The translations under genes were made by a program, and so were the position numbers. From an uncultured Armatimonadia bacterium (GTDB lineage: Bacteria > Armatimonadota > Zipacnadia > CAVVLO01), in contig CAVVLO010000002.1 in NCBI GenBank assembly GCA_963749155.1, positions 1,152,001 through 1,216,000 of the forward strand: a stretch of DNA of 64,000 nucleotides. The letters are read 5' to 3'. Position 1 is the first letter of the stretch. Each line of letters begins with the position of its first letter. Shown piece after piece: positions 4,690 to 21,768 of the stretch. A model generated the notes under the pieces. It saw only the letters and a list, made by a program, of their open reading frames with translations, had not been told where the DNA came from and did not search any database.

Positions 4690-6371
4690 GTGAGAGCCTT
4701 TATTTCTGCCAGGATTTGATCATCGGTATAATGTCTCATCGTAATGGCGTGGGCAGGACAGCCTGCGCCACAGGCTCCGCATCCTTTACAGGAAGCAGAG
4801 ACCACCTTGGCGACTCGCCGGCTGCCCAAATCAACCAGAGAGATAGCCCCATAGGGGCAGGTTTCCTCGCAAAGGCCGCAGCCAATACACTTGTCTTCAT
4901 CTACGCTGGAAGTGATCGGCTCCACCGGGACTTCGCCGCGCTGCAAGGGGATAGAGGCGCGCGAGGCGGCCGCAAGCCCTGTCGAGATGGCCTCTGGGAT
5001 GTCACAAGGCCAGCGCGAAGCGCCCGCCAGGAAGATTCCATCGGTTGCAAAATCGACTGGGCGCAGCTTAACATGGGCTTCGAGGAAGAAGCCATGAGCA
5101 TCGCGTGGCACTTTGAGAAGCTGGGAAAGAGCCTCCGAGTCCTCATGGGCGACAAGCGGCGTGCTAAGCACTACCAACTCGGCAGGGATGCGCTCATACA
5201 TTTTCGAGAACTCATCCCAGACCAGAATCGTGCCATCTTCAATCTTGGGCGGGCGTTCGACACGATATTTTACGAAGCGGACGCCCAAGTCACGGGCGCG
5301 AGCGTACCACTGCTCGTAGTCGACCCCCCAGGCCTGCATATCGCGGTGGAGGATCCAGACGCGGGTGCCATACTTCTCAACGAGTTCCATCGCGTTTTTA
5401 AGTGCGGTAACGCAGCAGATTTTGCTGCAATAAGGCCGCTCGGGGATCCGGGCGCCAACGCACTGGATCATTACGGCGGTTTTGGGCGGCTTGAGATTGT
5501 CTTCATTGAATCTCTGCTCAAGATCCCACTGGGTCATTACATGCTCGCCGTCATAGTTGTAGAAGCCTTCTGGCTTGAGAGGCTCGGCTCCTGTTGCGAT
5601 GACAAGGATACTCGTATCGAGCTCCATCGTCTCAGTACCGTTGGTGGTCAGTTCGGCTTTGTAGTTGCCGATAAAGCCCTTGAGCCCTGTCAGCTCGGTG
5701 TTGGTCTTCACCGTGATGCGCGGATTATGCTCGATACGCGGAAGCTGGGCATCGAGCAGGCAGCCTGGCATCTCGCCGCTCGGATAAAGCTTGTGGGCGT
5801 GCTTGACCATCCCGCCCAGGGCGTCGGTTTTCTCGATTAACACGACCTTAAACTTGCGAGCGGCAAAGCTCTCAGCCGCAGCCATGCCCGCCACACCGCC
5901 GCCGATGACCAGGGCAGTATCTCCAACCGGGACACTGGTCTGTTCCAGCGGTTCGAGCAGTAAAGCGCGGGCGATGCCCATCGTGACAAGGTCTTTGGCC
6001 TTGTCAGTTGCGGCATCAGGCGCATCTCGATGAACCCAGGAGCACTGCTCGCGGATGTTCACAAACTGGAAGAGGAAGGGATTGAGTCCAGCCTCGGCAC
6101 AGGTGCGCCGGAAGAGCGGTTCGTGAGTGCGCGGAGTGCACGCAGCCACAACCACGCGAGTCAGGCCGTTTTCGGTGATAGCCTGCTTGATGGCGGTAAG
6201 GCCGACATCGGAACAAGTATATTTATTTTCGATAGCGGTGATGACGTAGGGGAGTCCCTCGACATACTCGCGGACGGCGGGGATATCAACAACCCCACCG
6301 ATGTTGGTGCCGCAGTGGCAGAGGAAAACTCCTACCCTCGGCTTTACGAATTCGTTGTCAGTTTCGCTCAT
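4686..6371 (-). CDS. hdrA: HdrA-like protein, equivalent to the C-terminal half of the 1008-aa HdrA
   Basis: Starts at MSETDNEF with an ATGA overlap. Motifs GVFLCHCGTNI, CTPRTHEPLF, GGGVAG, QCVGAR..YCSKICC and a C-terminal 2x[4Fe-4S] domain. Confidence 0.9.
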   Translation of the reverse strand: MSETDNEFVKPRVGVFLCHCGTNIGGVVDIPAVREYVEGLPYVITAIENKYTCSDVGLTAIKQAITENGLTRVVVAACTPRTHEPLFRRTCAEAGLNPFLFQFVNIREQCSWVHRDAPDAATDKAKDLVTMGIARALLLEPLEQTSVPVGDTALVIGGGVAGMAAAESFAARKFKVVLIEKTDALGGMVKHAHKLYPSGEMPGCLLDAQLPRIEHNPRITVKTNTELTGLKGFIGNYKAELTTNGTETMELDTSILVIATGAEPLKPEGFYNYDGEHVMTQWDLEQRFNEDNLKPPKTAVMIQCVGARIPERPYCSKICCVTALKNAMELVEKYGTRVWILHRDMQAWGVDYEQWYARARDLGVRFVKYRVERPPKIEDGTILVWDEFSKMYERIPAELVVLSTPLVAHEDSEALSQLLKVPRDAHGFFLEAHVKLRPVDFATDGIFLAGASRWPCDIPEAISTGLAAASRASIPLQRGEVPVEPITSSVDEDKCIGCGLCEETCPYGAISLVDLGSRRVAKVVSASCKGCGACGAGCPAHAITMRHYTDDQILAEIKALT

Positions 6372-8555: not shown

Positions 8556-9091
8556 TTTTTCTCACCCTCTTCTGCGGTAGCTTCGAACTCTTTTTTGAAC
8601 TTATAGTTGGCGAAGAGCTGGCGGACTGTTTCGGCGCGCTGTTCGATTTCGGGAAGGCCCATCCGCTTGCTGCGGCGTTTGTTGTCGAAGTCGGTGATCT
8701 CATAGATGCGGCCATACTGATACACCAGTTCGGCTTGCTTCTTGAAGCCGGCGGGCACATAGCCTCGTTCGACAGCCAGGTTCTTAAGCGCGGTAATGAC
8801 GTCGGTGAGGCGGACGTCCTGAGGACAGCGCTCCTCACAGGTGTAGCACATCGAGCACAGCCAGAGGGTCTCACTCTTCAGCAAGTCCTCATCAAGGCCC
8901 AGCAAGGCCTTATGGATGATCTGGCGCGGGTTGTAATCGGGATTTATTTCAGCCACCGGACAACCGGCGGTGCAGGTGCCACACTGGAAGCAAGCATTGA
9001 TATGCTCGCCTCCTGGTTGGCGCCTGACTTCATCAGCGAAATCAGGATGCAGAGTAGTGACTTCGCGGGTTTCGTCCTCGTTAGTACTCAT
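8552..9091 (-). CDS. hdrC: Heterodisulfide reductase subunit C
   Basis: CFQCGTCTAGCP and WLCSMCYTCEERCP; ATG 9091 is preceded by a GGAGAGG ribosome-binding site. Confidence 0.93.
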   Translation of the reverse strand: MSTNEDETREVTTLHPDFADEVRRQPGGEHINACFQCGTCTAGCPVAEINPDYNPRQIIHKALLGLDEDLLKSETLWLCSMCYTCEERCPQDVRLTDVITALKNLAVERGYVPAGFKKQAELVYQYGRIYEITDFDNKRRSKRMGLPEIEQRAETVRQLFANYKFKKEFEATAEEGEKK

Positions 9092-9129
9092 ATCGGACCT
9101 CTCCCTGGTGGTAAAGAGCACAGCAGGAG

Positions 9130-9158
9130 ATTATATGCCAGCCCCTGTGCAGTGTCAA
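9130..9158 (-). promoter_or_regulatory. Consensus sigma70 promoter of the hdr operon
   Basis: Minus strand TTGACA (9158-9153), 17-bp spacer, TATAAT (9135-9130), about 40 bp upstream of hdrC. Confidence 0.85.
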
Positions 9159-9261
9159 ACCAAACGGAGGAAGCTCTGGTTCCCTGAAAAAAGCCTCAAA
9201 AAGGCCCCTAAAGTCTTTTTTGCCTTCTGCCGATAAGCAAGACAAGAGGGCAGAAGACGCG

Positions 9262-10617
9262 ATGAAAAGAGCTTTGGTAGCCACAGCAAACGACAAGTGC
9301 CGTGATCTGCTTGAGGGGATGCTCTCAGGCAGAGGCTTTATGGTTGTGCCAGCCAGGGACACCGCTCAGGCTATCAGCCTGCTGGGAGAAAGCGCAACTG
9401 ATCTGCTGCTGCTGGACGCGAGGCTGCCTGGCGCGACGGCGGACTCTGTCCTGCAACTGCTTGAGCCTAACCAGTTTGAGCCGGACCAGAAGGTGCTGCT
9501 GGTAACTTGCGCCTCGGGACGAAAAGTGAAAGAGCAAGGTGCAGCGGCGACCAACTTGCTCGATATGCTCAAGGCCAAAAGCCTCGAAGCCGAGTTGCTG
9601 CGCGAATTAGGCAAGCTGACCGTGCGCGGAGGAGAACTTGGCAGCGCCTGCAGCAAGCTGATGGAACTGGCCCTTCGGCTGACCGGAGCCTCGGGAGCCT
9701 TGCTGGCGGTGCGAGACCACGAGCGGATTGGCTCTCAGGTTGCCAGTACCAAACCACTGACTGCCAGCTTCTGGCGCAGGTTGATGGCACGTACAGCCGA
9801 AGTAGCTGAAGGTCTAGGTCTGGCCAACGTTACAGCTCGACGACTGGAAGAAGGGCTTGAATCAGAACTCGAAGAAGCTGGCGAGAGCGCCAATCCAGAG
9901 AATCCTGCAATTCGAGGCTTCAGAGTTTTCCCCCTTACTGGACGGGGAGGGCCCAGAGGCCTATTGGCGTTAGGGTTTGCTGCCACGCCAAAGCTGAGTC
10001 CCGCAGTAGATGAGGCGCTCAAGCTTGCAGTGCCGTATGGCGGAGTGGTGATAGAGAACCTGCTGCTGCACCGACGACTGTGGGAGATCTCCAGGGTGGA
10101 CGAACTGACGCAACTGGCGAACCGGCGAGAATTCGAAGAACGGCTTTCCGTTGAGTTAAGGCGTTACCGACGCTATGGTACAGGATTCAGCCTGATAATG
10201 ATGGACCTGGACAACTTCAAGGGGGTGAACGACAAACTGGGGCATGTCGTTGGCGATCAGGCAATAGCAGCGGCAGGTCAGGCTTTGCGAAGCACCTTGC
10301 GCGCTGTGGATGTATGCGCGCGATTTGGCGGAGACGAATTTGTGGCCATCCTGCCAGAGACGACCTCCTATCTGGAGTTGATTGGAGGACGCATCCAGGA
10401 GGCCGTTCAAGCCGCCTTGTTACATATACCTGGAGTCGACTCGGTGCCGGAGGTAGGGGTCTCCCTGGGGATAGCTTCCTGTCCAGACCAGGGTACAGCT
10501 CGAGAAGAGTTGCTGGGGGCGGCTGATATAGCGCTTTATCTGGCCAAACGTCCTCAGGCCGTTAAGGTACAACTTGCGAAGGTTGGCGTAAGAGCAACCT
10601 CAGATGCAAGACGCTAG
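9262..10617 (+). CDS. Diguanylate cyclase (REC-like, GAF-like and GGDEF domains)
   Basis: DLLLLDARLPG receiver-like N-terminus; DELTQLANRR, DLDNFKGVND, RAVD I-site and RFGGDEF. Confidence 0.9.
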   Translation: MKRALVATANDKCRDLLEGMLSGRGFMVVPARDTAQAISLLGESATDLLLLDARLPGATADSVLQLLEPNQFEPDQKVLLVTCASGRKVKEQGAAATNLLDMLKAKSLEAELLRELGKLTVRGGELGSACSKLMELALRLTGASGALLAVRDHERIGSQVASTKPLTASFWRRLMARTAEVAEGLGLANVTARRLEEGLESELEEAGESANPENPAIRGFRVFPLTGRGGPRGLLALGFAATPKLSPAVDEALKLAVPYGGVVIENLLLHRRLWEISRVDELTQLANRREFEERLSVELRRYRRYGTGFSLIMMDLDNFKGVNDKLGHVVGDQAIAAAGQALRSTLRAVDVCARFGGDEFVAILPETTSYLELIGGRIQEAVQAALLHIPGVDSVPEVGVSLGIASCPDQGTAREELLGAADIALYLAKRPQAVKVQLAKVGVRATSDARR

Positions 10618-10853
10618 GGGTTAACTTGACTAGCTCTCCACTGAGAGGGTCCTGGCGGTAAGATGAGTTGAGGGCTTGATTGGATAAGAGAGCTAGGCAC
10701 AAGACCAGGAGAGGCAAGCCTAGTAACTGGCACGGTTATCTGGTCAGGAGGCAGGCACGGCCAGGGCTAGTGGACAACTAGCAGGTATCAAGACCTCAGG
10801 CGAGTATTCTCTTCGTAAGTAGCTACTTTTTTTTCCACTGAGAGGGCCTGTGG

Positions 10854-11963
10854 ATGGCTGGACTGGTCGTTGCACTCGATGGCGGAGGCAGCCGGACGCG
10901 CGCGCTTGCAACTGACGGCTCAGGGCAGGTACTGGGAACCGGACTTGGCGGCGCAAGCGCCTTTGTGCGGGCAGGCGGAGCAGTGGTTTTCGAGTCTGTT
11001 GCGAAGGCACTGCAGCAGGCGGTTCCTTCCGAGCTAGGCAAGGAGCCGGCTTCGGTAGCTTTCTGCCTGGGTGGGGGCAACGGTGAGGAGGCCTGTGCTG
11101 CTGTAAAAGCGGTATTGCCGGCAGCCAAGGTGAGCCTGGTTGGAGAGGTCGACTGCGCGCTGGCACTTGGACAAGCGCGGTTGGTAGACCTTGTGGTGCT
11201 TGTTGGGACAGGCGTCATCGCAGGAGCCCCCTCGGGAGATTCGCTAGTTGCATGTGGAGGGATGGGCGCCTTTACAGGAGATGAAGGGGGCGGCTTCTGG
11301 GTAGGTTGGGAAGCCGTGCGAGCTGTAATAAGAGCACTGGATGGGCGCGCACCAGGCACTCTGCTCGAGCCTTTGCTGCTAGCTGAGTCACAACTCTCCA
11401 AGAGTGCTGGCTTACCACGAGACGAGGTTCTTGTCAGGCTGGCTGGTTCTCCAACCGAAAGAAGAGGACTGGCGTACCGACTCGTCTGGGGAGCGCGAGC
11501 CATGGGCAGGCAGCATATCGGGGCGTTGTCTCCTTATGTGAGCCAGGCTGCGCGTGAGGGTGACGAGGTTGCACAGGCTCTCCTGGTAAGGGCGGGAGGA
11601 GAGCTTGCTCGGTATGCACTTGCGCTTGGCCAGGAACTTGAAACTGCAGGGGCAAAGTCTGCCAGGGCAGGTTTTCTGGGAGGGCTGGTGCGATCGAGTC
11701 CTGAGGTGCTGGAAGGGATCAACCTGGAGTTTGCACAAGCAAGATCAGGCCTTGCGGCGGTTATACTTGAGGGCGAGTTAGTGTTTGGGGCGGCTTTGAA
11801 GGCACTGGAGCGTGTGCTTACCCAGGAACAGGCAGCAGTGCTTCTAGAGGACTGGAGCACCAAAGCGCACTGGGCTCTTGCACCCGAGCCCGAGTGGATT
11901 GCCCCGGAATATGGCAGCTTTGAGCCTGGAAGTCTGGCTTCAGAGTTCGGTTCGATCGCTTAG
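10854..11963 (+). CDS. BadF/BadG/BcrA/BcrD-type ATPase, probably an N-acetylhexosamine kinase
   Basis: LDGGGSRT, GTG and GDEGGGFWVG motifs; lies directly upstream of nanE. Confidence 0.82.
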   Translation: MAGLVVALDGGGSRTRALATDGSGQVLGTGLGGASAFVRAGGAVVFESVAKALQQAVPSELGKEPASVAFCLGGGNGEEACAAVKAVLPAAKVSLVGEVDCALALGQARLVDLVVLVGTGVIAGAPSGDSLVACGGMGAFTGDEGGGFWVGWEAVRAVIRALDGRAPGTLLEPLLLAESQLSKSAGLPRDEVLVRLAGSPTERRGLAYRLVWGARAMGRQHIGALSPYVSQAAREGDEVAQALLVRAGGELARYALALGQELETAGAKSARAGFLGGLVRSSPEVLEGINLEFAQARSGLAAVILEGELVFGAALKALERVLTQEQAAVLLEDWSTKAHWALAPEPEWIAPEYGSFEPGSLASEFGSIA

Positions 11964-11973
11964 GAGGTACCCA

Positions 11974-12663
11974 ATGAACCTGGTCGACCAACTGAAGGGA
12001 AAGCTGGTGGTCTCCTGCCAGGCAGGCGATTACAGTCCTTTTCATGGCCCTCTCTTGATGGCAGCTTTTGCCTGGGCAGCCGAAAGAGGCGGGGCGGGGG
12101 GATTGCGCGTCGATAAACCTTGTGACATCGCAGCGTGCAGAAGGATCAGTTCCTTGCCCATAATTGGCATCTACAAAGTGATATATCCAGGAAGCGAGGT
12201 CTACATCACGCCAACTTTTCAAGAAGCCCAGGAGGTAAGCGAGGCGGGAGCGGACATATTGGCTATCGATGGGACTGGTCGTGAACGGCCGCTGGGAACG
12301 GAGCTGGGGGCACTTATCGAGCGCATCCAGGGAGAGTTGGGCAAGCCTGTGATGTGCGATTGTTCGACTGTAGAGGAAGGGCTGCGCTGCGCAGAATTGG
12401 GAGCGGATATTGTTGCTTCCACAATGGCTGGATACACTCCGTATTCTAAAAAAACGGAAGGGCCGGACCTGGAGATGGTAGCCAGGCTGGCAAGCGAGCA
12501 ACCAAAGCCTGTTATCGCTGAAGGGCGTTATTGGTCACCTGAAGAGGCGCGCCTGGCACTGGAGGCTGGGGCCCACGCGGTGGTTGTAGGAACGGCGATC
12601 ACGGTGCCGGAGTGGATAACTTCGCGGTTCGTTGCGGAGATGGCAGAAGCAAAGCGCAGTTGA
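11974..12663 (+). CDS. nanE: N-acetylmannosamine-6-phosphate 2-epimerase
   Basis: LVVSCQA, PIIGIYK, VYITPT, STMAGYT, IAEGR and VVVGTAIT motifs; AGGAGG ribosome-binding site. Confidence 0.93.
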   Translation: MNLVDQLKGKLVVSCQAGDYSPFHGPLLMAAFAWAAERGGAGGLRVDKPCDIAACRRISSLPIIGIYKVIYPGSEVYITPTFQEAQEVSEAGADILAIDGTGRERPLGTELGALIERIQGELGKPVMCDCSTVEEGLRCAELGADIVASTMAGYTPYSKKTEGPDLEMVARLASEQPKPVIAEGRYWSPEEARLALEAGAHAVVVGTAITVPEWITSRFVAEMAEAKRS

Positions 12664-12689
12664 CCCGGCTTGAAGAGCTAGGTTATAAG
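12660..12689 (+). promoter_or_regulatory. Putative sigma70 promoter of the membrane-protein/GlmL cluster
   Basis: TTGACC, 18-bp spacer, TATAAG, overlapping the nanE stop. The first 13 bp are identical to the ahcY promoter. Confidence 0.55.
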
Positions 12690-12697
12690 CAGACACT

Positions 12698-13150
12698 GTG
12701 AGCCGGCAAAGCAATACCTCAGTTCCGATACTTGGGTGGACAGTGCACCTGGCCAGGCAGCAACCTGCTCGCGCCTGGGGTGTCCTTTTGGCGATCCTCG
12801 GAGCATCAGTTTTAGCCTGGTGGGCCTTGGGAGCGCCTGCTTATGGGTTGCTTGCCGCCTTTTTACTGATTATGAGCCTGTCGGATTTCTATTTTCCAGT
12901 GAAATTCGAGTTGACGGAGCAGGGCGCAAGAGAGAGCTGCCTTGGGCCCAGGCGATATATCCAATGGAAGGAAGTGCGCCAGGTGTTCGTCGATGCGAAA
13001 GGCGTGAAGCTTAGTCCCCTTGCTGAGGAAAGCAGGCTCGAAGCTTATCGAGGCCTTTATCTGCGGTTCGCTGATAATGCCGAATTGGTAGAGGAGACAG
13101 TCAGAAGGCTTTGGGAGAAGGCGAAAACGGATGAGGAGCTTCGGCAGTGA
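12698..13150 (+). CDS. Hypothetical protein with two TM helices and a PH-like C-terminal domain
   Basis: Hydrophobic hairpin followed by FELTEQG...IQWKEV...KLSP..SRLEAYRGLYLRF; overlaps the next ORF. Confidence 0.75.
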   Translation: MSRQSNTSVPILGWTVHLARQQPARAWGVLLAILGASVLAWWALGAPAYGLLAAFLLIMSLSDFYFPVKFELTEQGARESCLGPRRYIQWKEVRQVFVDAKGVKLSPLAEESRLEAYRGLYLRFADNAELVEETVRRLWEKAKTDEELRQ

Positions 13151-13445
13151 GCCGGTAAGCCCGGAGCAGGAAACACTGCTGCTGGGTCAAATAGTTACCT
13201 TTGTAACCGCTCGCCGGCTGGAAGTACCTGCCGTCTTCCTGCTTGAGTTGACAAAACCGCTCAGTTTTATAACGAGCCAGGCTGTGGTGCTTGCCTCCCC
13301 AGTCCTTGGCGCTTTACTGGGACTAGCTACTGCAGAGGCGCTATATTGGGTTCTTGAAGACAGAGCGCGGGTAGAGAAACTTATACAGAGTATCGAGGAG
13401 GCCGCAACTCTGGCTCCGAGCGACCAGCAGAGCAAGCCGGACTAG
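13131..13445 (+). CDS. Small hypothetical protein
   Basis: 104 aa with RRLEVPAVFLLELTKPLSFITSQ; tight operon spacing. Confidence 0.72.
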   Translation: MRSFGSEPVSPEQETLLLGQIVTFVTARRLEVPAVFLLELTKPLSFITSQAVVLASPVLGALLGLATAEALYWVLEDRARVEKLIQSIEEAATLAPSDQQSKPD

Positions 13446-13448
13446 CCG

Positions 13449-14297
13449 ATGGACAAGACTCTTCAGGATGCGATGGCCGAGCACGCCACATATGGCACCA
13501 GCGTGATGTTGTTGGTGCTTATAACCGTGTTGCTTGGTTTCGTGTTCACGGCGCGGCGCGGAAGAGAGTTATATGTAAGGCGCATCCCTGGGGTGGACGC
13601 CATACGCGAGGCCGTTGGGAGAGCCACCGAGATGGGCAAGCCCGTGTTTTTCTCGATTGGACTTGGTGGCATCGACATCGTTACCTTGCAGGCGCTTTCT
13701 ATCGCAGGTTATGTAGCCCGGCTTGCAGCCAAATATGGGACGAAAGTGATAGTGCCGGTAGTGTCGGCACCAGTATACCCAGTTGCAGAGCAAGTACTGA
13801 AAGAAGCGTATCTGGCCGAGGGCAAGCCTGAAGCTTTCAGTGAAGATCAGGTGCGTTTCCTGTCGGGAGAGCAGTTCGCCTACGCGGCAGCGTACGCAGG
13901 GATGATGCATCGAGAAAAGGCCGCGGCAAACCTGATGTTTGGTTTGTTCTATGCGGAGTCTTTGATTCTGGCGGAAAACGGTCAGAGCCTCGGGGCTATC
14001 CAGGTAGCAGGCACAGTCAGCACGACCCAGATACCTTTCTTCATTGCCACCTGCGATTACACTATCATTGGTGAGGAATACTACGCGACTTCGGCTTATC
14101 TTACGCGTGATCCGACCTTGCTAGGCTCGCTTGTAGGGCAAGACTATTCGAAGCTCCTGACTTTGTTGCTTGTGGTCGGAGGGGTAGCCTTGGCGACGCT
14201 TGCGGCCTTGTGGCCAGAGCTGGCAGGGCTTGATATGAAGCAGTTAAGCGAACTATACAAGGGGTTGTTCGAGTTCATCCCTCCCAATGGAAGCTAG
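13449..14297 (+). CDS. DUF6754-like membrane protein
   Basis: TM helix, then VRRIPGVDAIREAVGRATEMGKPV...FYAESLILAE...QIPFFIATCDYTIIGEEYYA, then a TM helix. Family name is from recall. Confidence 0.8.
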   Translation: MDKTLQDAMAEHATYGTSVMLLVLITVLLGFVFTARRGRELYVRRIPGVDAIREAVGRATEMGKPVFFSIGLGGIDIVTLQALSIAGYVARLAAKYGTKVIVPVVSAPVYPVAEQVLKEAYLAEGKPEAFSEDQVRFLSGEQFAYAAAYAGMMHREKAAANLMFGLFYAESLILAENGQSLGAIQVAGTVSTTQIPFFIATCDYTIIGEEYYATSAYLTRDPTLLGSLVGQDYSKLLTLLLVVGGVALATLAALWPELAGLDMKQLSELYKGLFEFIPPNGS

Positions 14298-15114
14298 AGC
14301 CTGGTACCAACTAGAGCCGGGAACGGCCGCTTTCTATCTTGCGCTTGCAGGCGTGCTGCTGGGCGGCGTTGGCTTTCTGCTGCTACTGACTGCTTTGCCG
14401 AAGAAGGGCAAACAGTATCTGATTATCGCTTTCACTTTCCTCGCGGGGCTATTCTACTCGCTGGAATACTACCTGCCGGCAACCTCGCCCGAGGGCAACC
14501 TGCTGAGTCCCTACATCATTTCGGTCGGCGAGATAGCAATGGTAGTTGGGGCTTTCTCCTTCTTGCTCGGAGTCATCAACCTGACGATGCTGCATGGCAA
14601 CAGTATTGCCAAAAAGCGCAAAGGCTGGGGCGCGTCGGTAGTTTTCTTCGCAGGCTTCCTTACCACGGTCGTCGCCGGCCTGTTGCAGTTTTATAAGGGA
14701 GCACAGGATCCAGGCGCGGAGAAAACCATCTACGATGCCATCTGGTCGTATCTGTTTGACGGGATGCTGGTGCCACTGCAGGCAACCACTTTCTCTCTGC
14801 TCGCCTTCTACATCGTGTCAGCTTCCTACCGCGCTTTCAGGGTCAGGTCACGAGACGCGCTGCTGATGCTGGCTGCGGCGGTCGTGCTGATGCTGGGGCA
14901 GGTAAATGCGGGGCAATGGCTGACGCACTGGATTCCTGAAGATTCGACCTGGTCTTTTCTCAGAGTAGAAGTTATAGCCAATTGGCTGCTTTCTACAGTA
15001 AATATGGCGGCGCAGCGAGCAGTGCTGTTTGGATTGATGGTAGGCGAACTCGCAATGGCGCTACGGATATGGCTTAGCCTGGAGCGCGGCGCTTTCTTCG
15101 AAAGGAAGCTATAA
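14287..15114 (+). CDS. Polytopic membrane protein of unknown function
   Basis: About 7 hydrophobic segments; ATTFSLLAFYIVSASYRAFRVRS motif. Confidence 0.82.
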   Translation: MEARAWYQLEPGTAAFYLALAGVLLGGVGFLLLLTALPKKGKQYLIIAFTFLAGLFYSLEYYLPATSPEGNLLSPYIISVGEIAMVVGAFSFLLGVINLTMLHGNSIAKKRKGWGASVVFFAGFLTTVVAGLLQFYKGAQDPGAEKTIYDAIWSYLFDGMLVPLQATTFSLLAFYIVSASYRAFRVRSRDALLMLAAAVVLMLGQVNAGQWLTHWIPEDSTWSFLRVEVIANWLLSTVNMAAQRAVLFGLMVGELAMALRIWLSLERGAFFERKL

Positions 15115-15122
15115 GGGGCAGC

Positions 15123-15980
15123 ATGCTGGAGTGGCTTGCAAAATTCAGGCAGGTAGACCGGCGCCTAATATATCTGGTGCTGACGACGGTAGTGGTGGCG
15201 CCTTTCTTCCTGCCAATGGAGCTTCCAATCTACCCAAGTCCGCCGGCTCGGACCTTCTACGAGGCAGTCGAGGCAGTACCTGCGGACCGGCTTATATTGA
15301 TAGGGGCTGACTGGGATGCAGGCACCCAGGGCGAGATGAGCCCCCAATCAGAGGCCGTTATCGCACACCTGATGAAATCAAAGAAGCGTTTTGCGATCTG
15401 GTCTGCTTTTGTCCAGGGGCCGCTTCTGACACAGACTATCTGTGAGCGGATAGCACCAGAATTTGGGGCGAAGTATGGCGAGGATTGGGTCAATATCGGC
15501 TACCGGACCGCCACGTTCAACACGCTGATGGCGGCGGTGAAGGACTTCCAGGGCACCTTCAAAACGGATTATAAGAACACTCCCCTGGAAAAGTTACCTG
15601 TACTCGATGGCATCAAAGACGTCAAACAGATCGGTATGGTAATTGACTTCTCGGGCTCAATGATGATGCCGACCTATATCAACGTGTTTCAGCCTTACAA
15701 AGAGACCAAGCTCTGTGCAGGGGTAACGGCAGTAATGGGGCCGGACTTCTTCCCCTTCCTTGACGCGGGGCAAATAAAGGGCTTGCTGTTAGGACTTAAA
15801 GGAGCAGCCGAATACGAAGCACTGGTTGGCCGCCCCTCCCAGGCAACCTCGTCAATGAATTCGCAGTCGCTGGCTCACCTGTTGATAATACTGTTGATAG
15901 TGCTGGGCAACCTGGGACTGGTGGCTCAGCGAAAGCTCGAGGCTCGGCAGGCAGAGCAAGACCAGGGGGGGGGGAAGTAG
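15123..15980 (+). CDS. Membrane-anchored protein of unknown function (TM, alpha/beta domain, TM)
   Basis: DRRLIYLV N-terminal TM, YGEDWVNIGY, GLKGAAEYE and a C-terminal TM. Confidence 0.82.
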   Translation: MLEWLAKFRQVDRRLIYLVLTTVVVAPFFLPMELPIYPSPPARTFYEAVEAVPADRLILIGADWDAGTQGEMSPQSEAVIAHLMKSKKRFAIWSAFVQGPLLTQTICERIAPEFGAKYGEDWVNIGYRTATFNTLMAAVKDFQGTFKTDYKNTPLEKLPVLDGIKDVKQIGMVIDFSGSMMMPTYINVFQPYKETKLCAGVTAVMGPDFFPFLDAGQIKGLLLGLKGAAEYEALVGRPSQATSSMNSQSLAHLLIILLIVLGNLGLVAQRKLEARQAEQDQGGGK

Positions 15981-16603
15981 TGGAAAACCAACTGGCTATG
16001 ACTACTTTGGCCGCCCTGCTTACGCTGGCTATCTTCTCAATTCTGTATAAGGAAAACATCGTATACAGGTATGCAGAGCACCTGTTCGTGGGCATTGCAA
16101 CCGGATATGGCCTGGTCATCACCTGGAAAGACGTGCTGGTGCCAAAGTGGCTTGATCCGATGCTTTCCGGTGGGGCCTGGCCGTGGATGTTTGCAATGGT
16201 CGCGGGTCTTATGTGGTACACGATTTTCTTGCGCAAGTATGAATGGACCTCCAGGCTGTTGATTGGCACTTTTATGGGACTTGCCGCCGGGGAGAGTTTC
16301 CGCGCTTTCGGCACTTTCTATATGCCACAGATTACGAGTTCTTTCCGCCCCCTCTGGGCCGGGAGTGTTGGCGCTTCGCTCAACCAGCTCGTGGTCTTCA
16401 TCACACTGGTGACAGTACTCAGCTATTTCTTCTTTGCCTTCCGGTATGAGCGAAAGGTGCTGCAAGTATCAGCTCAAACGGGGCGATATCTGCTTATGCT
16501 GTCATTTGGGGCCATCTTCGGATCGACAGTGATGGCCAGACTTTCCTTGTTCATCGAACGAATCCACTTTCTGCTGAAAGACTGGCTGCATCTAATTAGG
16601 TAA
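15980..16603 (+). CDS. Polytopic membrane protein of unknown function
   Basis: LYKENIVYRYAEHLFVG and GRYLLMLSFGAIFGSTVMARLS; about 6 TM helices; stop/start overlap with the previous gene. Confidence 0.82.
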   Translation: MENQLAMTTLAALLTLAIFSILYKENIVYRYAEHLFVGIATGYGLVITWKDVLVPKWLDPMLSGGAWPWMFAMVAGLMWYTIFLRKYEWTSRLLIGTFMGLAAGESFRAFGTFYMPQITSSFRPLWAGSVGASLNQLVVFITLVTVLSYFFFAFRYERKVLQVSAQTGRYLLMLSFGAIFGSTVMARLSLFIERIHFLLKDWLHLIR

Positions 16604-16669
16604 CCTTGGCTTAGCCAGGTCATCAGTCAGCATACCGGAGAAGGCTTTTTTTCCACGATTGGAGCTTAT

Positions 16670-17816
16670 ATGGAACTGTCAGTACTGCACGTGGAAACCG
16701 GCAAATACTGGACCGGTGGGACTGTCCAGGTGCTGAACCTGCATAACGCGCTTACTGAACGCGGAGTGCGGTCGTTGCTGATAGCGCCCAGGGGAAGCGA
16801 GATAGCAGCTCGAGCCCAGCAAGCTGGACTGCCAGTCGAGGAACTGCCTTTTCGCGGAGAGGGAGATTTACTGGCTATATGGCGCCTGCGTTGTATCATC
16901 AGAAAATTTCGACCAACAATCCTCGAACTTCATCAGCCGGCGGGGTGCACCACTTCTGGGAGAGCTTGCCGCCCTCACAATCTCCAGGCGCAGTCGCCCC
17001 AAGGTTATCGTGCATCGCAGAGTTGACAACCGACCAAGTAGTGATCATCTTCAGCGCTGGCAACTCACTCGAGGTTGTGACTTCGTAATCGCCATATCAC
17101 GACGCATCTACAATGTGCTAATCGAATATGGGGTGTCCAGAGAGAAACTCGAGCTTGTCTATAGCTCAGTTGATATAGACGGTTTTGCGGAGCCCTATTC
17201 TCAGGAAGAGTTCGCGAGTCTGCTGGATTTGCCCGCCGAGGCCCAGGCTGTGGGCATTGTGGCTCAACTTATCGAGCGTAAAGGTCATTCTGACTTGTTG
17301 AAAGCTTTTGCCAGGGTGGCAGCAGAGTATCCCAACCTGTATGTCGTGGTATGTGGTCGCGGGCCACTTGAAGAAAGCCTGCGCACTGAAGCCCAGACGC
17401 TGGATATAGCGGACCGAGTGCGATTTCCAGGTTTCAGGCAGGACTTGCGCCGGTTGCTTCCCCGGTTTGCAATGTTGGCACATCCTGCTTATATGGAAGG
17501 GCTTGGGGTGGCTGTCCTCGAAGCCATGGCAGCAGGAGTCCCTGTAATCGCCTGTAATGCCGGAGGCCTGCCCGAGATGGTGCTAGACAGGCAAACTGGT
17601 TTACTGGTGGAGCCGGGAGATGTCGCAGGACTTGAAACCGCGATACGTCGTTTGCTGGAAAGCTCGGCGCAAGCAGCCCGTTATGCGGAAGCAGCACGCA
17701 CAAAAGTAATAGAAGATTTCTCGCTGGAAACAATGGTGGACAGGACGCTGGCAATCTACGAGCGGCTTCTACTACCAAAGTCTGGCAAGGAGAGCTTTGA
17801 TAGCGATGGGGCTTGA
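16670..17816 (+). pseudogene. GT4-family glycosyltransferase with a +1 frameshift near 16934 (pseudogene or sequencing error)
   Basis: Removing one C from catcagccgg restores ...ILELHSRRGAPLLG...KVIVHRRVD. The C-terminal half has RKGH and EGLGVAVLEAMA. Confidence 0.85.
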
Positions 17817-19614
17817 GGATGCAGGTTTGATATTAGCCACTGATTGCGGCTCTACCACTACAAAAGCCATACTGGTAGAGAAACGCTCTGAAGGGTATCG
17901 GTTAGCGGGACGAGGCGAGGCGCCAACAACAGTAGAGGCTCCTTTCGACGATGTTACTATTGGAGTACTCAATGCCACATCGGAATTGGAGGAGACTACC
18001 AGGCGCAAGCTGCTAAATCCGGCGGGCGATGGGCTTCTTACAAAGAGTGCTTCTGCTGAAGCCGAACTGGACTTATATGTATCCACCTCGAGCGCCGGAG
18101 GCGGACTCCAGATGATGGTTGCCGGCGTGGTAGGCTCAATGACTGGCGAGAGCGCCCAACGCGCAGCCCTCGGCGCAGGCGCGATAGTGATGGACGTCAT
18201 CTCGGTTGATGATGGCCGCAGTCAATATGAACGAGTCGAACTGCTTCGCAGCCTTCGGCCTGACATGGTATTGCTTGCTGGCGGGACAGATGGAGGCACC
18301 ATCGTTCATGTTGCAGAGCTTGCCGAGACCCTGGTTGCCGCGAAACCAACACCCCGGTTTGGACTTAATTTCCGCTTGCCTCTGGTTTACGCGGGCAATG
18401 TGGAAGCTCGAGATGAAGTACAACGGTTACTTGCCGAGATTGCAGACGTCCGCCTGGTCGCGAATCTGAGGCCAGCCCTGGATTCAGAAAACCTGGGCCC
18501 GGCGCGCGAAGCCATCCACGAGTTGTTTCTGGATCATGTGATGCAGCAAGCACCCGGTTATCCTCGACTAACAAGCTGGGTGGCGGCGGATATTATGCCA
18601 ACTCCCTCGGCAGTTGGTTACCTGGTGCAGTTGGTAGCAGAAGCAGAACAGCTCAATGTGTTGGCAGTTGATATCGGAGGCGCCACGACTGATGTGTTTT
18701 CTGTTTTCAACGGCAACTACACCCGCACAGTAAGCGCCAATCTGGGTATGAGTTACAGCATCCAGAACGTCGTGAAAGAGGCAGGTATCGATCGCATCTT
18801 ACGCTGGCTGCCTTTTGAGACCCCTGCAGAGGCTGTACGAACTCAACTGAAGAACAAGATGATCCGCCCTACTACTATCCCTCAACGCAACGATGATTTG
18901 CTGATTGAGCAAGCAGTGGCAAGAGAGGCGTTGAGACTGGCGCTAGACCATCATAACCAGCTTGCTGTGAGTTTGAAAGGTATACAACAGATACGTACGA
19001 TTGGCGAAGCCCTGACACAGGAAGGCAGTGGGCGTCGACTGGTCGATATGAACAACGTGGACTTGCTTATAGGGAGCGGTGGAGTATTGTCTCACGCGCC
19101 CAGGCGCTGGCAAGCCGCGTTGATGTTGATTGATGCTTTTGAGCCGGCAGGATTCACCAGACTTGCGGTCGACAGCATCTTTATGATGCCCCAACTGGGA
19201 GTTCTGGCCTCGGTACATCGAGAGGCTGCTCTTGAAGTCTTCGAGCGAGACTGCCTTCTGCCGCTTGGCGCAGTAATCGCTCCTTTTGGGGTTCCTGCGC
19301 GAGCGGGGGTGTCGTTGGGTAAAGCAATAGTTACTACTCCGACTGGAGCTGTCGAGCTGGAGCTTCTAGCTGGAGAACTCCAGCTTGTACCACCCTGGGG
19401 AGATGGACTGGCCAAGCTTGTTGTAGAGCCAGGCCGGAAGTGGGATGTTGGCGCCGGGCCCGGGCATCCTCTGGAAGTTACGGTGGAGGGAGGCCAGGTT
19501 GGATTGATCTTCGATTGCCGAGGTCGTCCTCTGGTGATACCTGAATCTCGCAAGGAATCATGTGTATATAACGAAAGGAGCCTGGTCGAACTTGCCAGGG
19601 GAGGAGATCACTGA
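17797..19614 (+). CDS. GlmL/MutL-like ASKHA-fold ATPase (glutamate mutase L family) with a C-terminal extension
   Basis: TDCGSTTTK, SSAGGGL, LAGGTDGG, IMPTP, VDIGGATTDVFS and GSGGVL motifs. Confidence 0.85.
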   Translation: MIAMGLEDAGLILATDCGSTTTKAILVEKRSEGYRLAGRGEAPTTVEAPFDDVTIGVLNATSELEETTRRKLLNPAGDGLLTKSASAEAELDLYVSTSSAGGGLQMMVAGVVGSMTGESAQRAALGAGAIVMDVISVDDGRSQYERVELLRSLRPDMVLLAGGTDGGTIVHVAELAETLVAAKPTPRFGLNFRLPLVYAGNVEARDEVQRLLAEIADVRLVANLRPALDSENLGPAREAIHELFLDHVMQQAPGYPRLTSWVAADIMPTPSAVGYLVQLVAEAEQLNVLAVDIGGATTDVFSVFNGNYTRTVSANLGMSYSIQNVVKEAGIDRILRWLPFETPAEAVRTQLKNKMIRPTTIPQRNDDLLIEQAVAREALRLALDHHNQLAVSLKGIQQIRTIGEALTQEGSGRRLVDMNNVDLLIGSGGVLSHAPRRWQAALMLIDAFEPAGFTRLAVDSIFMMPQLGVLASVHREAALEVFERDCLLPLGAVIAPFGVPARAGVSLGKAIVTTPTGAVELELLAGELQLVPPWGDGLAKLVVEPGRKWDVGAGPGHPLEVTVEGGQVGLIFDCRGRPLVIPESRKESCVYNERSLVELARGGDH

Positions 19615-20726
19615 TGGCGACCGCTTACACGGCAGGGCTTAGAGTAAGCAGCTCAGCCACAGTGCGCAAGGAACGCAAGCTCCCTTTGCTGGGCGAAGTG
19701 TTGGTTAAGGCAGGTGACCGGGTCGCACCTGAAACCGTGCTGGCAAAAGCCGACAGGCCTGGACTGCTGTCCTCGCTGCACCTGGCAGACAAGCTTGGTG
19801 TTGATGCCGATGCACTCCAGGCGGCGTTGCTTGTCAAAGAGGGAGACTCAGTCGAAGAAGGCCAGCTCCTGGGTGAGCACAAGTCCTTCTTTGGGATGTT
19901 TACCTCAAAGGTCATCGCTCCACATGCAGGCACAGTGGAGTTTATCTCTGCCGTTACTGGCAACCTGGGTTTGAGGCGGGCGCCCACTCCCCTCGAGTTA
20001 AAGGCCTTTATAGCGGGCGAAGTGCTGGAAGTCCTTCCCGAACAGGGAGCCGTCCTTGAAGCAAAGGGAGCTTTTGTACAGGGAATATTCGGCGTTGGGG
20101 GCGAAGCAGTCGGCGAACTTGCGCTTGCAGTGGAATCTCCAGATGAGGTGCTTGTGGCGTTGCCAGAGCAAATCGCAGGCAAGGTGCTAATCGCAGGAGC
20201 AGGGGTCAGCGATGACGTGCTGGCAGCGTTACTTGTGAATCCTCCGGCGGCACTGGTTGTGGGCAGTCTGGTTGATAGTCAGCTTGCCAGCTTGCTTGGC
20301 GTAGAATTGGGTGTTGCAATAACTGGCAAAGAGCGTCTTGGTATGACGGTAGTTCTGACTGAAGGCTTTGGCCAATTGGCAATGGCAAGTCGGACCTTCA
20401 ATGTTTTTGCAGGTCTGGTTGGCAAGCAAGCGTCCGTCAGTGGAGCGACTCAGATACGCGCGGGAGTCTTAAGACCAGAGGTAATAGTGCCCCTTGAGGC
20501 CTCGGAAGGCGCTGAAGCCTCTAAAACTGGAACCGAGCTAGTGGCGGGGGCGAGAATACGACTTATCCGCGAGCCTTATTTTGGTTTGCTGGGACACGTC
20601 CTGGCACTCCCCGAGCAGCCTGTAGAGCTTGAGACTGGCGCCATCGTCAGAGTGCTGGAAGCCGAACTGGATTCTGGTCCAACGGTGCAGGTTCCACGCG
20701 CCAATGTGGAGTTGTTTGAAGATTGA
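19614..20726 (+). CDS. Hypothetical protein with barrel-sandwich-hybrid repeats and a KOW/SH3-like C-terminus
   Basis: GEVLVKAGDRV, LVKEGDSVEEGQLL..APHAGTV, QGIFGVGGE, LTEGFG, TQIRAGVLRPE and IRLIREPYFG; TGATG coupling to the GlmL-like gene. Confidence 0.82.
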   Translation: MATAYTAGLRVSSSATVRKERKLPLLGEVLVKAGDRVAPETVLAKADRPGLLSSLHLADKLGVDADALQAALLVKEGDSVEEGQLLGEHKSFFGMFTSKVIAPHAGTVEFISAVTGNLGLRRAPTPLELKAFIAGEVLEVLPEQGAVLEAKGAFVQGIFGVGGEAVGELALAVESPDEVLVALPEQIAGKVLIAGAGVSDDVLAALLVNPPAALVVGSLVDSQLASLLGVELGVAITGKERLGMTVVLTEGFGQLAMASRTFNVFAGLVGKQASVSGATQIRAGVLRPEVIVPLEASEGAEASKTGTELVAGARIRLIREPYFGLLGHVLALPEQPVELETGAIVRVLEAELDSGPTVQVPRANVELFED

Positions 20727-21691
20727 GCCGAGTTAAGGCTGTAAAGAAAGTGCTTACGATCGGCTCTTGCATGGTGGAGATAACTCCCACAGAAGCCGGT
20801 CAGACCATACGTGACGCGCATACTCTTTATAAGTATGCCAACGGGTCAGTGTCCATCTTTGCCTCTGCAGTTGCCCGCCTTGGGGTGCCTATTACCGTGG
20901 TCTCGCGAGTGGGCGCTGATGAGCTTGGCGAATTCATGATTCAGGCACTGGCCGAGCTAGGTGTGGATTCGAGTCTGGTAAAGCCAGTGCCAGGGATGCA
21001 GACACCCGTATCTTTCTGTTCAGTGGACCAGGAAGGGGGCAAGAAGTTCGATTTCTACAGATTCCCTGGCTATTCGGATCCTATGACGGAAGTCTCACAG
21101 GCTGATTTTCCGCAGCCACTGTTTGAAGGTTATGGGTTGTTTGACTTCTCCGAAAATATGCTCCGCAGCAGCAAGCAACGCTCAGCGGTTTTGACCGCGG
21201 CAGCACGAGCGCGCAAAGCTGGTTGCATGGTAGTCTACGCCGTCAATCTGCGCTTTTCAGCCTGGCAGGAGCCAGAGACAACGATCCGGACCCTCCAGAA
21301 GCGCGCCCTGGGTGTTGCGAAGGTGGCAGTGATGAACTCTGAGGAGTTAGCCTTCATCACCAAAACCAACGATGTGAGCGCTGGCTGCTCCAAAATACAT
21401 GAACTTGGCCCTGAGCTAGTGGCAGTGACCAGTGGCGGGGGACCGACCATACTTTCAAGTGAGAAAGGCCTGCTAGAGATTCCGCCTTTTGAAGTCGAAG
21501 TGATTTACGATGTGGGGGCTGGCGATTGTTTCCACGGGGGATTGGTCGTCGGACTGGCAAACGGGCTTGCTCCAGCAAGCGCGGGGCTTTTAGCCAACGC
21601 CGTTGCGGCGTGGAGAGTGTCCAGGGCGCCACGTCTTGAGGATCTACCGACACTTTCTCAAGTGGAAGATTTCATCGCAAGTCGGCGTTAG
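20723..21691 (+). CDS. PfkB-family carbohydrate kinase
   Basis: RVGADELG and DVGAGDCFHGG PfkB signatures. Confidence 0.88.
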   Translation: MSRVKAVKKVLTIGSCMVEITPTEAGQTIRDAHTLYKYANGSVSIFASAVARLGVPITVVSRVGADELGEFMIQALAELGVDSSLVKPVPGMQTPVSFCSVDQEGGKKFDFYRFPGYSDPMTEVSQADFPQPLFEGYGLFDFSENMLRSSKQRSAVLTAAARARKAGCMVVYAVNLRFSAWQEPETTIRTLQKRALGVAKVAVMNSEELAFITKTNDVSAGCSKIHELGPELVAVTSGGGPTILSSEKGLLEIPPFEVEVIYDVGAGDCFHGGLVVGLANGLAPASAGLLANAVAAWRVSRAPRLEDLPTLSQVEDFIASRR

Positions 21692-21718
21692 CAGAGCAAA
21701 ACTTGTATATAAATGAGA

Positions 21719-21747
21719 AGCCCCGGCTGGGAGTTCCAGCCGGGGCT
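21719..21747. terminator. Intrinsic terminator hairpin between convergent pfkB and csp
   Basis: agccccggctgg-gagtt-ccagccggggct, a perfect 12-bp stem. Confidence 0.8.
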
Positions 21748-21768
21748 CTGGGTTGGCTAGAGTTCAGG

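Follow-up and report, generated by a model that had tools for sequence, protein, structure and literature searches.

Eight genes of Armatimonadota for a GlmL-like ATPase, its partner and six membrane proteins: a probable new kind of ATP-driven membrane machine

The window analysed here, a stretch of 64,000 nucleotides from an uncultured Armatimonadia bacterium (contig CAVVLO010000002.1, positions 1,152,001 to 1,216,000 of the forward strand), carries eight co-directional genes coding for six small membrane proteins (A150, B104, C282, D275, E285 and F207, referred to below as components A to F), the ASKHA ATPase GlmL605 and its partner protein BSH370. Comparison across genomes supports the view that these eight genes make up one conserved system, the members of which keep together in distantly related bacteria, and the eight proteins probably work as an ATP-driven membrane machine of a new kind. 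In the phylum of the window the system is nearly universal, yet its ATPase is publicly labelled 'glutamate mutase L'.

All eight genes are open reading frames (ORFs) of the + strand. A150 (12698..13150, 150 amino acids) is a small membrane protein and B104 (13131..13445, 104 amino acids) a small membrane protein with one helix; they form the conserved components A and B. C282 (13449..14297, 282 amino acids) belongs to the family DUF6754 (PF20539), D275 (14287..15114, 275 amino acids) is a multi-pass membrane protein, E285 (15123..15980, 285 amino acids) has a helix at each end with a domain of ~200 residues between them, and F207 (15980..16603, 207 amino acids), again multi-pass, closes the C-D-E-F cassette. 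GlmL605 (17797..19614, 605 amino acids) is an ATPase of the PF13941 family with an extra C-terminal domain, and BSH370 (19614..20726, 370 amino acids) is its three-part partner. The co-directional run of these eight lengths, described in a first-pass annotation of the window, is confirmed by the ORFs at 12698-16603 and 17797-20726. Its description of the genes as mostly overlapping also holds at the junctions, where the overlaps are 20 nt for A/B, 11 nt for C/D, 1 nt for E/F and 4 nt for BSH370 and the following sugar kinase gene, while GlmL605 and BSH370 are coupled by TGATG. A single 6046-base contig from another sequencing run (X1) covers 13923-19969, so the gene order holds in another assembly.

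Conservation of the eight genes across genomes

The phylum was sampled with 151 genomes, in which the ATPase was found in 134, BSH370 in 130 and DUF6754 in 132. All 17 genomes without the ATPase (87-99% complete) are also without BSH370 and DUF6754. They comprise all 13 genomes of family f10, two of the eight in f13, the only one in f17 and one of the six in f19. Since related genomes are not independent, roughly four joint losses were counted, not 17. Six genomes show a mismatch: G002 and G083 carry the ATPase with no DUF6754 match, and G043, G061, G086 and one more give no BSH370 match. Four of the five named genomes are fragmented (260-1140 contigs), the remaining one, G002, consisting of ~60 contigs at 93% completeness. 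The candidate machine of the first-pass annotation would have been refuted if these genes did not co-occur, and their shared presence and absence shows that they do. Both families are large, with at least 8000 protein clusters for the ATPase at E <= 1e-50 and, for the partner, 1237 clusters (50% identity) at E <= 1e-30; at E <= 0.001 the relatives of BSH370 number 3728.

In respect to gene order, which in the window reads A-B-C-D-E-F-(GT4)-G-S (G denotes the ATPase, S the BSH370-type partner and GT4 a glycosyltransferase gene), two sets of 20 loci were compared. In the ATPase-centred set the ATPase stands alone within ~9 kb in 11 loci, has BSH370 beside or near it in 8, and in one (L034) is accompanied by all the other genes in the order of the window, minus GT4. 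The DUF6754-centred set is more uniform, with A-B-C-D-E-F in 14 loci, B-C-D-E-F in three, and one each of A-B-C only, A-B-G-S-C ended by the contig edge, and A-B-G-S-C-D-E-F (L054). The last order recurs in L010, labelled Planctomycetota, and in L011; C-D-E-F-G-S is found in L013 (Clostridia) and A-G-S-B-G-S in L012 (Bacillota). The order C-D-E-F is constant in every cassette seen. In the DUF6754-centred set a homologue of A150 leads the cassette at 14 of the 20 loci and a homologue of B104 lies immediately ahead of C at 18; in L053/L054, L060 and L069 the B104 homologue precedes the ATPase. The partner is found alone in seven Armatimonadota loci (L003-L009, from Fervidibacter and Fimbriimonadia); in the Fervidibacter genome G153 all three markers are present, on three contigs. 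Among the small ORFs beside lone ATPase genes (L015-L033), no hidden homologue of A or B was detected with hidden Markov models.

Two Bacillota genomes, the sources of L013 and L012, contain 11 and 10 DUF6754 genes, respectively, together with about 5 and 7 full ATPase genes and their partners. All 16 Bacillota DUF6754 genes that were fetched sit in C-D-E-F cassettes, three of them in tandem, and both A and B adjoin ATPase pairs in these genomes. The tandem group, L059 7230-16866 (G152:C26), consists of three complete C-D-E-F cassettes right after a TldD/PmbA metallopeptidase pair.

Several features were observed in single loci only or concern the surroundings of the cassette. L041 has the A-B pair twice (5234-6029 and 8981-9665, separated by ~3.7 kb) ahead of a single C-D-E-F cassette, and L050 has two tandem DUF6754 genes. 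In L035 a 658-residue DUF6785/DUF6784 protein (11544-13520) is encoded directly upstream of the cassette, with no recurrence elsewhere. The Rfam models, applied at gathering scores to 14 of the 20 DUF6754-centred loci, gave only tRNAs and one ZMP/ZTP riboswitch (L038 3625-3705, 43.1 bits, with the gathering score at 39), which lies ~5 kb upstream of the cassette and is probably unrelated to it.

The ATPase, its partner and the glutamate mutase label

GlmL605 matches PF13941 (MutL) over residues 12-486 with an E-value of 5.8e-125 (418 bits) and, weakly, Hydantoinase_A (8.8e-5). Its ASKHA nucleotide-binding motifs are invariant in 29 aligned sequences. The extra C-terminal domain noted at first pass is real: ~120 residues extend beyond PF13941, with positions invariant in all 29 sequences, and the NCBIfam GlmL model (459 positions) stops at residue 484, so that the protein counts 605 residues against ~460 expected. 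A public record, P0271, has 602 residues, with the ATPase start placed 3 codons downstream. The search of PDB sequences with a GlmL605 profile gave nothing significant.

The one paper found to name GlmL together with glutamate mutase concerns mesaconase (PMC4682846).

As a glutamate mutase helper, GlmL605 was considered and ruled out on three grounds. It scores under all three NCBIfam cut-offs, with 233.8 against 475 bits for NF040745, 215.6 against 600 for NF040744 and 169.3 against 204.05 for TIGR01319. GlmE (PF06368) is rare: it has no match anywhere in the source genome (100% complete, 5.87% contamination, with one PF13941 gene) and is found in one of the 151 phylum genomes, at 29.8 bits, against 134 with the ATPase, whose full-length relatives there share 57-66% identity. 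The four B12-binding matches in the source genome are all on contigs other than that of the window. The first-pass annotation had seen no mutase in the stretch, which thus extends to the whole genome in the case of GlmE, and the idea that the ATPase might track glmES elsewhere is refuted by the same counts. Close relatives from Fervidibacter, Fimbriimonadales, Chthonomonadetes and other Armatimonadota are publicly named 'glutamate mutase L'; on the genomic evidence this label is contradicted, and the annotation is due for correction.

The partner, described at first pass as a barrel-sandwich-hybrid protein, has indeed such a domain, as indicated by a match to RnfC_N (Pfam, 6.2e-8, residues 49-123) and by structural comparison. 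Its AlphaFold2 (AF2) model (pLDDT 86.4) divides into three parts. Residues ~15-150 form the barrel-sandwich hybrid, closest to RnfC (8ahx_C, Z 7.8, root mean square deviation (rmsd) 2.4, 64 aligned; also 4u9o_A, Z 7.3). Residues 152-294 form a swivelling beta/beta/alpha domain, best matched by Enzyme I (2wqd_A, Z 9.9, rmsd 2.5, 106 aligned) and further by the small subunit of aconitase X (Z 9.3), RraA (Z 7.9) and DdrA (2d0o_A, Z 6.8). Residues 308-370 are KOW/SH3-like (5ohq_A, Z 8.0, rmsd 1.3, 52 aligned). Foldseek returned no match over the whole length of BSH370 in the PDB, and the profile search of PDB sequences gave weak rows only. In 23 aligned sequences the invariant polar residues are E164, E240, E250, T279, Q280, R282, R287, E289, R316, N364 and E366; there is no invariant or near-invariant His among them, and likewise no invariant Cys.

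The pairing of GlmL605 with BSH370 is supported by a predicted interface, and natural fusions lend it independent support. The complex prediction gave ipSAE values of 0.77, 0.77 and 0.78, with 0.02 for the best control; of 157 solved complexes 116 attain this mark, as do 2 of 215 mismatched pairs, counts that hold only roughly here since our own alignments were used. The runs agree on at least 96% of the contacts, with a partner pLDDT of at least 84. An inter-subunit interface, on which the proposal of the first-pass annotation depended, is therefore predicted for this pair (0.77 against 0.02). On the BSH370 side it would be formed by the invariant motifs TEGFG 250-253, TQIRAG 279-285, IREP 318-321 and PRANVE 361-366 and the conserved N-terminal AYT, and on the ATPase side by residues 345-368 together with residues 19-20, 47 and 296 of the nucleotide cleft. 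Two natural ATPase-partner fusions, P0032 (995 residues) and P0114 (1003 residues), are present among the 150 best-scoring of the 3728 BSH370 relatives, and their N-terminal halves are of the full GlmL605 type (54% and 51% identity over ~580 residues).

In L074 (1312-4788, G154:C44) an open frame of ~1158 residues matches both the ATPase and the partner profiles and represents another natural fusion; an ornithine cyclodeaminase gene adjoins it. A candidate fusion in L019 (an open frame of 1008 residues) was dismissed, as a stop codon terminates the ATPase there.

Membrane proteins and local gene neighbourhood

A Kyte-Doolittle scan shows at least one hydrophobic stretch in each of the six small proteins, five of which had been called clearly membrane-bound at first pass. 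A150 has two such stretches followed by a soluble C-terminal part, B104 has one, and D275 about six or seven. In E285 they span residues 15-33 and 244-272, each flanked by positive residues on its terminal side, and from this arrangement we infer that the ~200-residue middle domain lies outside the cytoplasm. Pfam offers no family for A150, B104, D275 and E285, and only a sub-threshold row for F207; no consistent family emerged among the alignment members of D275 (22) and F207 (21), and none among those of E285. The profile searches of PDB sequences gave nothing significant for D275 and F207 and weak rows only for E285 and A150, and the ESM Atlas returned no usable named cluster for E285. The first-pass annotation had allowed for a match of the membrane proteins to a characterised transporter, and none was obtained, either as a consistent Pfam family or as a relative in the PDB sequences.

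C282 is the only one of the six with a clear family, DUF6754 (1.1e-95, 320 bits against a gathering score of 27), which is without an assigned function; with C282 the ESM Atlas likewise returned DUF6754 clusters only. The AF2 model (pLDDT 88.4) has a Rossmann-like domain (45-220) between an N-terminal helix and a long C-terminal one. Structural comparison of this model gave a flat, generic list at Z ~10 (short-chain dehydrogenases, RCK/TrkA-N, the N domain of MurG), and Foldseek found no match in the PDB at E <= 0.001. Cys202-Asp203 and several acidic and Gln residues are invariant, and no cofactor-binding motif was identified. Relatives of C282 have a signal-peptide-like start and a beta-rich domain ahead of the first helix, and the extra domains of the long DUF6754 forms are all of extracellular types (PQQ-like beta-propeller, FN3, PKD or Ig-like); in seven long forms the extra part is N-terminal in five and C-terminal in two. 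As extracellular-type domains thus occur at both ends, the ends would point outward, and we infer that the Rossmann-like domain faces the cytoplasm. The C282 of the window (a 283-residue open frame) has no extra domain of the extracellular type.

D275 and F207 have a similar motif, FG..G....M..R..L..ER, at their C-termini (~15060-15110 and ~16540-16600). They were considered as paralogues, and this was rejected on the hhalign probability of 0.6%. Homologues of F207 in L042 (6664-7923) and L051 (12235-13452) carry ~150 additional residues, inserted after the first conserved part and ahead of the second.

Two genes included in the extent first given for the run, 12660..21691, do not belong to the system, although the eight genes within that extent are conserved. 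The first, between F207 and GlmL605, is a glycosyltransferase of family 4 (GT4; 16670..17816, + strand). The family was correctly named at first pass, as Pfam recognises GT4 N and C halves, but the gene is not a single ORF in the window: it is divided into two (16670-17026 and 17010-17816) by one extra base near 16933 (16933/16934; region 16925-16940). The extra base is absent from the contigs of X1, X2 and X20, the three of four other runs that cover the place, where the gene is therefore intact (X20, a run guessed to be RNA, may be DNA); the frameshift may reflect a pseudogene specific to the strain or a mistake in the assembly. In L034 and L013 the ATPase gene follows F with no GT4 gene in between. 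The second is a PfkB-family sugar kinase gene (20723..21691, + strand; PF00294 at 1.5e-39). A search of 52 related loci by tblastn gave no match with the BadF-type kinase, NanE, PfkB or the glycosidase-like ORF of the window, and stray, distant matches only with GT4 and GGDEF. By this comparison GT4 (a local insertion), PfkB, NanE and the BadF-type kinase are local neighbours outside the conserved system.

Upstream of the run, on the same strand (9220-12663), are three genes, one for a diguanylate cyclase of the response-regulator type (GGDEF), one for a kinase-like ATPase of the BadF/BcrA type and one for an N-acetylmannosamine-6-phosphate epimerase of the NanE type. The sugar-metabolism setting made up of these upstream genes, GT4, PfkB and a rhamnosidase-like ORF was seen in this genome alone. 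The NanE gene ends 34 nt upstream of A150. The candidate promoter that the first-pass annotation assigned to the run was not recovered: a scan with a sigma-70-type pattern gave 8 sites against 5.6 expected, none of them on the + strand upstream of 12698 (12600-12700), the pattern being a search model from which the promoters of this phylum may differ. Just past the PfkB stop (21691) a strong hairpin of 13 pairs, 10 of them G-C, is found at 21718-21748; it was flagged on the - strand only, and the transcription unit may end there.

Proposed mechanism, alternatives and known systems

In the mechanism that we propose, GlmL605 and BSH370 would form a tight cytoplasmic heterodimer, with the conserved motifs of the partner placed against the ATPase and reaching its nucleotide cleft, and this pair would supply a membrane complex with energy. 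C-D-E-F would build the complex itself, with C as an anchored cytoplasmic Rossmann-like domain, D and F as multi-pass subunits and E contributing a domain outside the cytoplasm. A and B, which travel with either of the two modules, would serve as adaptors between the ATPase pair and the cassette, the docking presumably taking place on C, A or B, and ATP turnover in the pair would drive the transport or translocation of a substrate across the membrane. That the pair energises the cassette, we consider an even chance; that this coupling powers transport or translocation, with cassettes that can be exchanged, is less probable. It is possible, if rather doubtful, that this amounts to a new class of primary active machine, powered by an ASKHA heterodimer rather than by a P-loop, P-type or rotary ATPase, with one pair serving one or several cassettes of differing specificity.

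The Bacillota cassettes provide a lead, not a result, as to the substrates. Peptide- or amide-type hydrolases account for 11 of the 58 neighbouring ORFs scanned there (Amidohydro_3 4, Peptidase M20 2, Peptidase M24 with a creatinase-type N domain 1, TldD/PmbA 2 and Beta-lactamase2 2), the 58 having been hand-picked by closeness and size from 157 in two related genomes. Many cassettes beside hydrolase genes would be the typical pattern of substrate-specific uptake systems.

A number of observations speak against the proposed coupling and transport. One is the way these hydrolase neighbours were selected, and another the high background of Amidohydro_3 in the same genomes (23 and 29 matches). 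In the phylum of the window no recurring neighbour of the cassette was found among 60 proteins from 18 loci, each from its own genome. The ATPase had no other component within ~9 kb in 11 of the 20 loci centred on it, and no fusion of the ATPase module to the membrane module was detected among 134 long DUF6754 forms. D, E and F show no known transporter fold by sequence, as judged from Pfam and the PDB sequences, and we know of no characterised transporter with an ASKHA ATPase as its motor.

The same hydrolase genes would also suit a membrane-associated catabolic enzyme, in which GlmL605, as a member of the hydantoinase-A branch, and BSH370 carry out an ATP-dependent step (e.g. on an amide, a lactam or an amino-acid-derived compound) and C-D-E-F provide only uptake or anchoring. 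The weak Hydantoinase_A match (8.8e-5), the enzyme-like invariant polar residues of BSH370, some of which the complex prediction places at the interface close to the nucleotide cleft, and the position of Bacillota cassettes and ATPase pairs beside genes of the Amidohydro_3, M20, M24/creatinase-like, TldD/PmbA, beta-lactamase-like and ornithine cyclodeaminase types are consistent with it. Such an enzyme is nevertheless unlikely, as a catalytic partner resembling hydantoinase B is not present, the system is single-copy with no recurring metabolic neighbour in the phylum of the window, and the neighbour pattern comes from a hand-picked subset of two genomes. Outward domains of the PQQ-like beta-propeller, FN3, PKD or Ig-like types, found on many DUF6754 relatives, and the probable location of the E285 domain outside the cytoplasm point in another direction, to an envelope or surface machine that passes ATP-driven movement on to surface domains for adhesion, motility, handling of a sheath or surface layer, or signalling. 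C282 of the window is without such a domain, and 10-11 cassettes per genome beside hydrolases suit the handling of substrates better, which makes this machine improbable.

A maintenance role of the kind played by DdrAB/PduGH, by EutA and presumably by the true GlmL would suit the PF13941 kinship; as a reactivase or chaperone the pair would repair a client or load a cofactor on it, and the client would then be the Rossmann-like domain of DUF6754 rather than a B12 enzyme. C282 has a fold of the nucleotide-binding type with the invariant Cys202-Asp203 and acidic and Gln residues, and the middle domain of BSH370 shares its fold with the large subunit of diol dehydratase reactivase (2d0o_A, Z 6.8). 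That score is within the range of common arrangements, however, the Rossmann-like matches of C282 are flat and unspecific with no cofactor-binding motif identified, and the Bacillota cassettes exceed the ATPase pairs ~2:1, so we give a maintenance factor slim prospects. Finally, the ATPase pair and the membrane genes might be independent, adjacent by chance or through operon shuffling, as the lone ATPase in 11 of 20 loci and the lone partner in L003-L009 could suggest. This is very improbable in view of the joint presence and absence in 151 genomes, among which the modules were lost together at least four separate times, and of an adjacency that recurs, in three gene orders, in sequences with Planctomycetota and Bacillota labels.

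If the ATPase pair does drive the cassette, a new energy-coupling principle for bacterial membranes would result, and DUF6754 and at least five protein families outside Pfam would gain a role. The modular form of this proposal, if true, would also explain why the system is a single-copy housekeeping one in Armatimonadota and Planctomycetota and occurs as 10-11 cassettes beside hydrolases in some Bacillota. A literature search found no paper describing the system, subscription journals being outside the search. The eight genes lend themselves well to genetic and structural work.

Among the known systems, GlmL/MutL, an accessory protein of the coenzyme-B12-dependent glutamate (methylaspartate) mutase, and the GlmL-related ornithine-degradation protein Or-4 resemble GlmL605 in the PF13941 family and in the conserved ASKHA nucleotide-binding motifs. 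GlmL/MutL lacks the C-terminal domain of ~120 residues, whereas GlmL605 has, in addition to it, an obligate 370-residue partner and membrane partners; glutamate mutase operons are not known to have such partners, neither the 370-residue one nor the membrane ones. The reactivases DdrAB (PduGH) and EutA combine an ASKHA ATPase with a swivelling beta/beta/alpha domain, a combination that the present pair may resemble: 2d0o_A superposes on BSH370 at no more than Z 6.8, with an rmsd of 3.4 over 112 aligned residues. In DdrAB this domain is inserted in the ATPase chain, while here it is on a separate protein, together with the barrel-sandwich and KOW-like domains. DdrAB and EutA have a B12 or radical enzyme as client, whereas here the link is to membrane proteins; no Pfam match to a client enzyme (diol dehydratase, ethanolamine ammonia-lyase or a mutase) was found in the 16 proteins of the window region or in the 60 neighbour proteins of the 18 loci.

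In the case of RnfC and NqrA, of the Rnf and Na+-NQR complexes, only the N-terminal barrel-sandwich domain resembles BSH370 and the rest of BSH370 is unlike them. The likeness extends to the setting, as each would be a peripheral cytoplasmic subunit of a multi-subunit membrane complex. None of the families RnfA/D/E/G or NqrB-F was found on A-F (Pfam, E up to 0.01) or on the alignment members of D, E and F (E up to 1), and no redox cofactor motif was seen. Enzyme I of the phosphotransferase system (PTS), the swivelling phosphohistidine domain of which is the best structural match of the BSH370 middle domain, is alike in fold only: it has a phospho-accepting His, and BSH370 has no conserved His. 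Barrel-sandwich hybrids also occur in EIIA-Glc; the HPr, EIIB and EIIC families are not present in the system.

A likeness in the possible way of working, with no claim of family, is to the importers of the energy-coupling factor (ECF) type and the modular ATP-binding cassette (ABC) importers. ABC importers use a P-loop ABC ATPase, against the ASKHA fold here, and no ABC_tran, ECF or permease family was found by Pfam on any of the eight proteins. In such importers the ATPase module is encoded either with the membrane modules or apart from them, and in the present system, too, the cassettes outnumber the ATPase modules in some genomes.

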